Of a stretch of 64,000 bases of DNA, positions 28,901 through 31,900 are shown in pieces. The DNA comes from Leucoraja erinacea (Eukaryota): positions 14,074,001 to 14,138,000 of the forward strand of contig NC_073411.1 in assembly GCF_028641065.1 (NCBI RefSeq), given 5' to 3'. The position numbers and the translations under genes are program-made. The notes beneath the pieces were generated by a model. That model had not been told where the DNA came from. It ran no database searches and was given only the letters and a program-made list of their open reading frames with translations. Each line of letters starts with the position of its first letter. The first letter of the stretch is position 1.

Positions 28901-31900
28901 TTTGTAGGTTTATAGAAAGTTGTTTATATACATACATTGCTATTTATGCAATTTGTTAAAAACAGAATAGTCACAGTGGTCCATTTGGAAATCAATGTTG
29001 AATATGGACATTTATTCAAGGAAGATTGGATATTTATTATATGAGCAGATTGCAAATTCAATTTTTACATTCAAATTATTGTCTACAGTTGTCATAAAAG
29101 AGGAATTAGTTGAGAGAGTAACTACTGAATGTTTTTAAAGGGCCCCACTGCTAATTCCCATACCGACCTCTCTGTCCTGGGCCTCTTCCACTGCCAGGGT
29201 GAGGACACATGCAAACTGGAAGAACAGCATCTCGTATTCTGTTTCGGCAGCTTACAATCCAATGGTATGAATATTGAATTCTTAACTTTCAAAGTAAACC
29301 TGCCCCCGCACCTTTCTTTCCAATGCCCCATCATCTAGTTCCTTTCCCCTCTTCCATCTCCACCTTCTGCTTATCTCCCACTCTTCCCTTGTCTGGATCC
29401 TCTACATTCTCTATCCCCACACCCCCATACTCTGCAGCATGTCCCTGTAATCATAACTATTCCACATCCATTTATATCTGATTGTGCAGTCAATTCATGT
29501 AGCTCACTGTGACTAATTTGCTTTTTTTTCCAGACACAATGCCTTCAAGCTTGCACTACTTGTGTCCTTCCCCTATCGCTCGATACTCCGTCCCTGCCTT
29601 GTAGATTCCTGTCTTTTGTTTGCATGCACGTATTACAGATATTAGGTATTACCTGTCAGTCCAACGGCTATGCCACCACAATAAACTGTGCAGTTGCTAG
29701 GACTGGATTGATTGACAACTTCTTCATAGGACAGCTGTTTGGTATTTGCTGTAAAATGGAAAACTTGCATGTTAAAATAAATGCCATAATCACAGCCACC
29801 GAGATATTTTTTAATCTATTTCTCCAATAATCACAAAACAAGCCTTCAGAATGACAATTTTAATTTCACATGGTTTGTCATGACATTATACAATTCAAGA
29901 ACTGTTTTTTAACAAAACTCCACAATACTAACTGTGTGAAGCTGCTCATCAGGCCCATCATACTATTTGATATTTATGAACACATCTAATTACAAAGTAT
30001 ATTTATGCTGTTAAAACACATGAAATTCTATATCGCACTATACTGCTCGTTTCACATACGTTCTGATGTAGTCTTTGGTGCTGGAGGCTTGCGAGTTGCC
30101 CAATTTGTTCGGATCTGCCTTCCTCCAAGCCACTGCCCACCCATCTGTTGAATGGCATTCTCAGCATCCTGACATAAAATGAAAACAAGCCGTCAGAAAT
30201 GGATGAAACAATCAAATTACAGCATTTAGCAACAAAGTTGGAGAAAGGTGATGGGTTTTTTAGCATTGGGCATCAGCAAACACTTCCAGTAAATCTGACA
30301 AGGATCTGCCACTCCAGTTCTTTCAGCGTGTCCTTGCAGCGTGTAGCAATGCTCATCCAACCCATTTGCCCAATACACGTCTCTTCCAATGGAGATCACT
30401 AGGACATTAGTGATAGTAGAATTAGGCCTCTCGGCCCATCAAGTCTACTCCGCCATTCAATCATGGCTGATCTGTTTCTCCCTTCGAACCCCATTCTCTT
30501 GCCTTCTCCCCAAAACCTCCGACGTGTGTACTAATGAAAAATCATCAGTCCTTTCTTTGTTTAGGAAATTATTCTTTCATTACTTTGATTACACAATTAG
30601 CGCACATTGGAAGGGATATAACAAAAATATAAAACAGTTAAGGCGACTTTGAGAGGTGAAAACTGCAATAGATATGGCAGAACCATCAGTGTTGTCAAAA
30701 AATAAAAGGTCTGCCAAAGGAGGCCAAACATGCAAAGTTATTTTAAAATGCAGTTTGAGAAGATTGAATACTAACATCCGATAAGCATTATCAGAGCCCG
30801 CAAGTAGTAACAATCATAGTTTGCATGAGTCTTTACAAGTTATGAGCGATCCAAGTTTTCTTCTTAGTCATGGAATTTTTGAAAACATTAATCAGCTGAC
30901 AAATGAACTAGTTTCATAACAGCAAATTGTACCAAATATAAATGTTCTCTTACCCACTTATTATAGAAGGATACAAAACCATACCCTTTGGATTTTCCTG
31001 TCGCCAAATCTTTAACCACTCTAGCATCACTGAAAATATAAATAAATAAGGCATAATAAATACATTTCTTGCTGGAATAAGTTTACTGTAGAGAATAAAA
31101 GACAGGAACCACACACACACACACACAATGCTTATTGTCAAGACATCACATCTCACCTTTGCAAAAGGAACCACTTAATGCAAGACACCATATTCTACAA
31201 AGCACTTTTCTCCATTATAAAATGTACTACATCTTGATCTGCTAATTCAGTTACAACAACTATAACGTGGTAAACATGCAAACTGTGACTGCGCTGGCTA
31301 ACATACTTACAGGCGTTTTTTCGTTTTAAAAGCTATTCAAATAGTTTGTAAGTTCATTCATTGTAAAAAATAAAAAAAAGCTAACTGCCTGCTAGGCATG
31401 GTCAAAGTAGCCATTCCTAGTTGAATAAGTCACCAGGCCAAATCAAAGAAAAAAAGTTTAGATTGAACAATTCATTGAATGGCTTTCCTTAACCATGCAC
31501 AATACATAGTACTTGTTGCCAACAAGTATTCTACCTATTCTTAAAAATACAGTATATGAAATAGAAAAAAAACTAGAAAAATAAAAAATAGGAATTAAAA
31601 GGCATACATCGCCTGTTAACAATTCTTTTAGTTTCTCGGTAGGGTGAATTCGTTACCCCCTTTTTGGACTGTGGGCAGCTGTAAATTTTGAGAAATTGAG
31701 ATTTTCAGAAACGGTTGCAATATTCAGAGAAAACTAATAAGATACTGTATTTCCAAAATTGTTAACAGAACTACGCAGACTAGAATATATGAAAAGTGCA
31801 TTATATACAGACAGGATCAGATCACTAAAGAGTCGATCGTGAACTATTTTAAGTAAAATTGAAAAAAAACAAAGTTAATTATCTGTTTACAAAGACAAAA

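Follow-up and report, generated by a model that had tools for sequence, protein, structure and literature searches.

Known Unproductive Exons of TIA Genes

The founding paper on the auto- and cross-regulated poison exons of TIA1 and TIAR is said to be that of Le Guiner from 2001. As to how such exons are recognized, later reports describe TIA proteins as binding U-tracts beside 5' splice sites and recruiting U1-C (PMC2964331), and the human and mouse TIA proteins as activating stop-carrying exons with weak donors and U-tracts in their own messages, the exons named being 5a, 6a, 8a, and 11a (PMC4385921). One regulated case is presented by a mouse Tia1 exon subject to nonsense-mediated decay (NMD), for which autoregulation beyond a threshold determined by Rbfox2 is described (PMC3967051). 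For human TIA1, intron-6 cassettes are listed at hg19 chr2:70452453/59-70452525/44 and 70452596-70452700 (PMC4281565; PMC8980049). Beyond the TIA family, decoy exons of retained introns are described for SF3B1, OGT, and ARGLU1 (PMC6097662), and a fast turnover has been described for the poison exons that splicing-factor paralogues carry (PMC11062102). No TIA poison exons shared between paralogues or located in a cartilaginous fish were found in the literature, of which supplements and subscription papers may hold some.

The TIA1 Locus of Leucoraja erinacea and Its Paralogue

The gene considered here is TIA1 of the skate Leucoraja erinacea, encoded on the minus strand of a window of 64,000 nt, the whole stretch of DNA that was analysed, to whose positions all coordinates refer unless a contig is named. 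Thirteen exons in the window reproduce the annotated skate TIA1 protein P0124 by spliced mapping. Intron 6 (38822-31030, 7793 nt), which contains the cassettes in question, is flanked by constitutive exon 6 (38823-38910, minus strand, 88 nt, as is human exon 6) and constitutive exon 7 (30954-31029, minus strand, 76 nt), the latter being also supported by contig joints. Downstream of TIA1 lies a gene with a zf-tcix domain (16699-17568, minus strand), which we take to be C2orf42, and a further neighbour is an ankyrin-repeat gene (2234-4507, minus strand), presumably ANKRD39-like. The human intron labels in the supplement of PMC4281565 also pair TIA1 with C2orf42.

A genome search found only two TIA-family loci in the skate, the second of which, on contig C15, matches the annotated skate TIAR/TIAL1 protein P0139. 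In a tree of 22 proteins, the TIAL1 sequences of cartilaginous and bony vertebrates form one clade (support 100/98), and the TIA1/TIAL1 duplication is therefore older than the split between these two groups, which occurred roughly 450 million years ago. TIA1 is paraphyletic in the same tree, with the cartilaginous-fish sequences placed beside TIAL1 (92/94); TIA1 monophyly is not rejected (p-AU 0.112), and the placement likely reflects slow evolution or rooting. Among minor observations on these proteins, cartilaginous-fish TIA1 keeps TIAL1-like residues, skate TIA1 isoforms use an upstream exon 6 acceptor (38931-38910, minus strand) that adds 7 amino acids, and shark TIA1 isoforms (P0123, P0126, and P0131) carry a 30-amino-acid insert after exon 3.

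Two Cassettes Shared Between the Paralogues

The element at the centre of this analysis is exon D, a frameshifting cassette of 71 nt (31608-31678, minus strand), recognized by its identity with the paralogue, a donor joint, and a finch isoform, with an acceptor ACAG and a donor GAT/GTATGC followed by a U-rich run; the original prediction had placed this exon, its length, and its donor correctly. It had also been right in that the exon alone shifts the frame, inclusion of D leading to a TAG at nucleotides 79-81 of exon 9 (29668-29670, minus strand), with further junctions more than 50 nt downstream. In skate TIA1, D is without an internal stop, and the premature stop arises by the frameshift. 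The D donor scores 4.8, below all of the 22 constitutive donors (6.4-11.2), on a small matrix trained on those same 22 sites, which are therefore flattered. The U-rich tract after this donor (31557-31601, minus strand), a candidate TIA-binding site, is 67% T at +7 to +36 and ranks second among 485 GT sites in intron 6. By the sequence features checked, D would belong to the class of TIA1/TIAR poison exons, being located in a TIA1/TIAL1 pre-mRNA, with a weak 5' splice site and a U-tract, a premature stop that precedes a later junction by more than 50 nt, and conservation across vertebrates. It resembles the described members in the genes and the intron concerned, in the weak donor with its U-tract, and in the premature stop, and it differs from them in being found in a cartilaginous fish and in acting by frameshift, with no stop of its own. 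The accessible part of PMC4385921 leaves a sharing of C or D between the paralogues unstated, and the TIAR exon designated 6a there may correspond to either of the two.

When the genome was searched with the D stretch, one other place only was found, intron 6 of TIAL1, with 85% identity over 160 nt (E 4.5e-44) and an alignment score of 189, compared with a shuffle mean of 23 and reached by none of 200 shuffles. The TIAL1 counterpart (G000:C15:20219788-20219860) is of 73 nt and has an internal TGA. The splice flanks of D are better conserved between the paralogues than coding exons 6-10, with 28 of the 30 nt before the acceptor and 27 of the 30 nt after the donor identical, versus 71/88, 58/76, 81/109, 63/96, and 72/85 in the respective exons (66-85%). 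Contigs of relatives covering the region of C, D, and the candidate exon E diverge less from the window than other intron contigs, with 25/1175 versus 119/2915 differences in the run X5 (p 0.002) and 9/647 versus 141/3172 in X2 (p 8e-5), these counts omitting X5 record 21 (located over D, carrying the paralogue's 2-nt insertion, and treated as TIAL1), the exonic record 17, the repeat record 18, and the whole of the run X1, which is too close to the window.

Upstream of D lies exon C (31921-31993, minus strand), a poison exon with an in-frame TAA, recognized through the paralogue, protein tails, and a human exon; it has a second AG at 31980, and its donor position is putative and uncertain. Exon C is 79.5% identical between skate TIA1 and TIAL1, with 0/200 shuffles as good, and by peptide and size it is the counterpart of the human TIA1 poison exon of 66/72 nt. 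The two exons follow in the same order in both paralogues, with a spacing of 315 versus 304 nt. Among the contig joints of four runs (29600-34700), none involved C. With both C and D present in both paralogues, and with near-identical splice flanks, both were, by homology, therefore probably in the gene before the duplication. Both would be ancestral and neither specific to one paralogue, and it is this that we regard as the durable result, that two unproductive cassettes appear to predate the TIA1/TIAL1 duplication and to survive in both genes. The original prediction of an unproductive multi-exon cluster older than the duplication is thus supported as far as C and D are concerned, by their shared order and spacing.

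Other vertebrates were surveyed through 430 annotated proteins. The KNGQ tail of exon C after exon 6 is present in 19 of these, 18 of TIA1 type and one a mammalian TIAL1 (P0177). Tails of D type are rare (1/430), the one example being the zebra finch TIA1 isoform P0346 that ends in CPQPKKG directly after exon 6, which is the D peptide with an internal stop; therefore, an amniote TIA1 also has D. These tails, of C type in amniote TIA1 and in one mammalian TIAL1 and of D type in a bird TIA1, speak against the earlier suggestion that the keeping of both exon types is a speciality of this lineage. One more line of support is provided by the TIAL1 joint between D and exon 7 (20219788-20219860 and 20220311), which makes an in-frame ATG with G at -3 and at +4, matching the widely annotated TIAR isoforms of 249-251 amino acids. 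The corresponding MDARVV start is found in 27/430 proteins, all of TIAL1 type (sharks, rays, birds, turtles, marsupials, and a human cDNA), and it requires TIAL1 exon 7 to be preceded by an exon with AT at its end, such as D, so that these proteins would constitute indirect support for D outside the skate. A HMMER search of 1.84 billion representatives with the D-frame ORF produced one match, P0431, a spurious intronic ORF from another organism that extends across sequence resembling C and D; the search gave no protein that terminates at the stop formed between D and E. A word-index protein search with the D-frame ORF gave no candidate, and D was without a match in either of two pattern scans of metagenome contigs.

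The presence of two cassettes kept in both paralogues since before the split of cartilaginous and bony vertebrates would stand in contrast to the fast turnover cited above for such exons in splicing-factor paralogues. Sharing of C and D would also date the TIA1/TIAR feedback loop and would explain cross-regulation as the property of one inherited sensor, and it points to a little-noticed D-type exon in amniote TIA1.

Other Cassettes of Intron 6

Two more unproductive cassettes are recognized further upstream. Exon B (32196-32306, minus strand, 111 nt, in-frame TAA) is connected by contig joints on both sides, from 32196 to exon 7 in X5 (depth 9.6) and from 33233 to 32306 in X2 (depth 9.0). The latter joint connects it with the donor of exon A (33233-33260, minus strand, 28 nt, in-frame TAG), whose acceptor is predicted. 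Neither A nor B has a counterpart in the skate TIAL1 paralogue; these exons are spliced in relatives yet absent from the paralogue, and lineage-specific additions to intron 6 therefore occur. Human intron 6, flanked as in the skate by an exon 6 of 88 nt and an exon 7 of 76 nt, likewise possesses several unproductive exons with alternative splice sites; the human rows, which comprise significant events only, include no exon of the size of D or E downstream of C. The human 104-nt alternative exon is situated upstream of C, in a place similar to that of A and B, which is a likeness in position. One other candidate exon in the skate intron extends from 37735 (or 37769, or 37678) to 37651 on the minus strand, with a U-rich donor (60% T). 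U-rich donors with a matching acceptor number only three in intron 6, those of D, E, and the 37651 candidate.

Splicing in Relatives

Contig joints were examined in 4 of the 24 listed runs, over 29600-34700, a span that does not include exon 6, so that exon 6 joints could not appear there. The RNA label of the runs is a guess, and the spliced exon joints show RNA. Two of the four runs, X5 and X2, have depth on exons 7-8, and the other two, X1 and X24, have none there and are little informative. Seven joints were listed across the four runs. One of these, in X5, a relative with approximately 4% intron divergence, connects the D donor with exon 7 (31608 to 31029) with GT..AG ends, at depth 47 versus 155 for the joint of exons 7 and 8. 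This joint belongs to TIA1, as the paralogue matches only 21/30 and 23/30 positions on its two sides, under the 88% cut. The same joint is absent in X2, the other run with exon depth. On the acceptor side, a joining of exon 6 to D is implied by one source, the finch annotation P0346.

The coverage in X5 is unbroken over the intron upstream of D, at depth 32-39, as compared to 12 downstream of D and 11 in intron 7, and most of the molecules with D joined to exon 7 may keep the upstream intron instead of including D as a cassette. The corresponding depths in X2 are about 9-13 for the upstream intron and 11-17 for intron 7, so that the former is not in excess there. Depth in contigs is a poor guide to level, and contigs drop rare forms. 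In X24, raw poly(A) reads pile up on the sense strand at 31310-31650 (depth 7-8, with 0.7 below 31310), near an A-rich stretch (approximately 31330), for which internal priming and an intronic 3' end are candidate readings. A fragment of a high-copy repeat in intron 7 (30415-30485) attracts reads and contigs by the thousand in each of the four runs.

Exon E and the Junction Stop

The original prediction paired D with a small exon downstream, whose coordinates and alternative lengths check out. This candidate exon E (31386-31416, minus strand) is of 31 nt with a GT donor or of 28 nt with a GC donor (31416-31389). The tract after its donor had been given as U7AU6, and it actually reads U8AU6 (31365-31379, minus strand; rank 4/485 by U content, in a tie). 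The arithmetic of the proposed pair is correct, D and E together amounting to 99 or 102 nt, with a TGA to which D contributes its last base and E its first two. Two features had been missed: inclusion of E by itself brings in an in-frame TAG (31394-31392), and the TGA at the D-E junction is immediately followed by an ATG that shares the frame of exon 7. E has a weak donor, a U-tract, and a premature stop, its acceptor ranks 188 among the 430 AGs of the intron, and no other AG is present within 58 nt before it. An X5 contig spanning E has low divergence (12/611).

As to the ancestry of E, its sequence is a single site in the genome, and comparison with the skate TIAL1 intron found 41/200 shuffles as good for the matching part and 10/200 for the whole intron. 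An E-like match of 15 nt elsewhere in the paralogue intron was rejected, with 24/200 shuffles as good. The suggestion of E as a TIAL1-type exon is not supported, E being unmatched in the TIAL1 of this genome, where D has the 85% identity given above. No E peptide is present among the 430 proteins. Neither joints of E nor a D-E joint were seen in the four runs, two of them with exon depth, contigs being prone to drop rare forms; the splice from 31608 to 31416, suggested as a check of the prediction, is among those not seen, while the joint of D with exon 7 is seen in X5. E may be a minor lineage-specific exon.

Further, D ends in T at codon position 1, so that any next exon starting with GA, AA, or AG gives a stop, as is the case with 6/22 constitutive exons of the two paralogues and with 44/188 comparable intron AGs. 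The view of the junction stop as a designed feature is not supported, given an unseen splice, a prior of about 25%, and homologues of D that have an internal stop. The junction stop is also redundant, as a premature stop results from D by itself and likewise from E by itself. It most likely arose by coincidence, at a splice that is itself unseen; a 'rheostat' built on the junction stop is unsupported, and a stop made at a junction adds little without D-E reads.

Interpretation

We consider it reasonably probable that D, which is shared with TIAL1, is an ancient poison exon activated by the TIA proteins themselves, with E and the junction stop being incidental. As extrapolated from TIA biology, abundant TIA1/TIAR would bind the U-tract after the weak D donor and aid U1 snRNP there, and the donor would be spliced to exon 7, as it is in X5. 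The message joining exon 6, D, and exon 7 would, by its sequence, shift frame and reach the stop in exon 9 well upstream of later junctions, and it would be removed by NMD, while a share of the D-spliced message would keep the upstream part of intron 6 and be held back instead. Decay or retention, either way, would result in lower TIA1 output, and the presence of C and D in both genes would let one sensor read the summed level of TIA1 and TIAR. In these terms, D is likely an old-lineage addition to the already known unproductive-splicing loop of TIA1/TIAR, of a kind known in mammals.

The balance between decay and retention may of course be the reverse, with D serving chiefly as a decoy, or as an intermediate splice unit, by which the upstream part of intron 6 is kept unspliced, as a detained intron, and with inclusion and decay as a side product. 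The depth upstream of D in X5, along with the depth of the D donor joint, fits such a role, PMC4281565 lists the human TIA1 intron 6 as detained to either side of the poison exon, and the competing sites at C and E fit the features of decoy exons, which resemble the skate cassettes in being conserved and non-coding, with competing splice sites, in long retained introns of RNA-processing genes, TIA1 and TIAL1 remaining unnamed in the main text of that report (PMC6097662). We nevertheless hold this unlikely, as X2 is without an upstream excess, splicing order alone gives the same picture, contig depth measures levels poorly, and the finch isoform joins exon 6 to D. Much less probable is a tandem splicing of D and E in which selection has kept the junction stop as a safeguard, so that the product with restored frame stays unproductive. 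Skate TIA1 D lacks the internal stop of its homologues, so that a junction stop would matter, and the arithmetic, the top-ranked U-tract of the E donor, the AG-free zone before the acceptor, and the low divergence of the X5 contig over E are all compatible with it. Against it, no joint of D with E, or of E with exon 7, is seen in the four runs, the joint of D with exon 7 being present, this absence itself being a weak one as exon reads were lost in two of the runs; E is absent from the paralogue and from the 430 proteins, and a stop would be expected by chance at about 25% in any case.

The in-frame ATG at the TIAL1 joint of D with exon 7, with its G at -3 and +4 and the 27 annotated proteins starting there, could be taken to suggest that D is kept as the source of a start codon for a short TIA isoform comprising half of RRM2, RRM3, and the Q-rich tail, with the ATG of E, in frame with exon 7 right after the junction TGA, restoring the start in TIA1. 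This we find highly improbable: the joint of D with exon 7 in skate TIA1 reads ATT, yet D is fully kept, and neither TIA1-type MDARVV starts nor E-type starts are present among the 430 proteins (0 of each). Moreover, annotation pipelines will give the longest ORF even of a decay substrate, and restart after a long upstream ORF is inefficient. An equally slim chance is given to its evolutionary form, an ancestral C-D switch, in which the joint of D with the next exon would end the full-length frame and start a short TIA protein without RRM1, TIAL1 having kept that start and skate TIA1, with its ATT joint, having rebuilt it via E; if true, the 'poison' products would supply, under regulation, a truncated prion-domain isoform and would not be decay substrates only. 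The least credible proposal, in our estimation, is that the conserved block is a non-splicing element, an enhancer or a structured RNA, whose exon-like features are incidental. It draws upon the ultraconserved element uc.313 of human TIAL1, of extreme conservation and in the same intron region, which partly overlaps an alternative exon of one RefSeq transcript (PMC7340126). In the skate, conservation peaks at the splice sites and the U-tract, and the donor is used. No Rfam match was found at E-values up to 1 (30900-38950), folding is not significant (z -1.6, 8/100 shuffles as good), and a structured RNA in the block is thus unlikely. The preferred reading remains that of D as a TIA-activated poison exon.

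Conserved TGCATG Elements

Two further elements, both located downstream of D, are shared by the paralogues. One, of 16 nt and starting with TGCATG (31484-31499, minus strand), is identical in both, and the other, also containing TGCATG (31272-31287, minus strand), is identical at 15/16 positions, with 0/200 shuffles as good in each case. We take them to be Rbfox-type motifs, and under the preferred reading of D they may tune the threshold at which the exon is switched on. The Rbfox input described for the mouse Tia1 NMD exon presents a likeness in that TGCATG motifs are kept in both skate paralogues, and a difference in that the mouse Rbfox2 signal, as far as described there, is upstream of the exon and repressing, whereas the motifs shared in the skate are downstream of D (PMC3967051).
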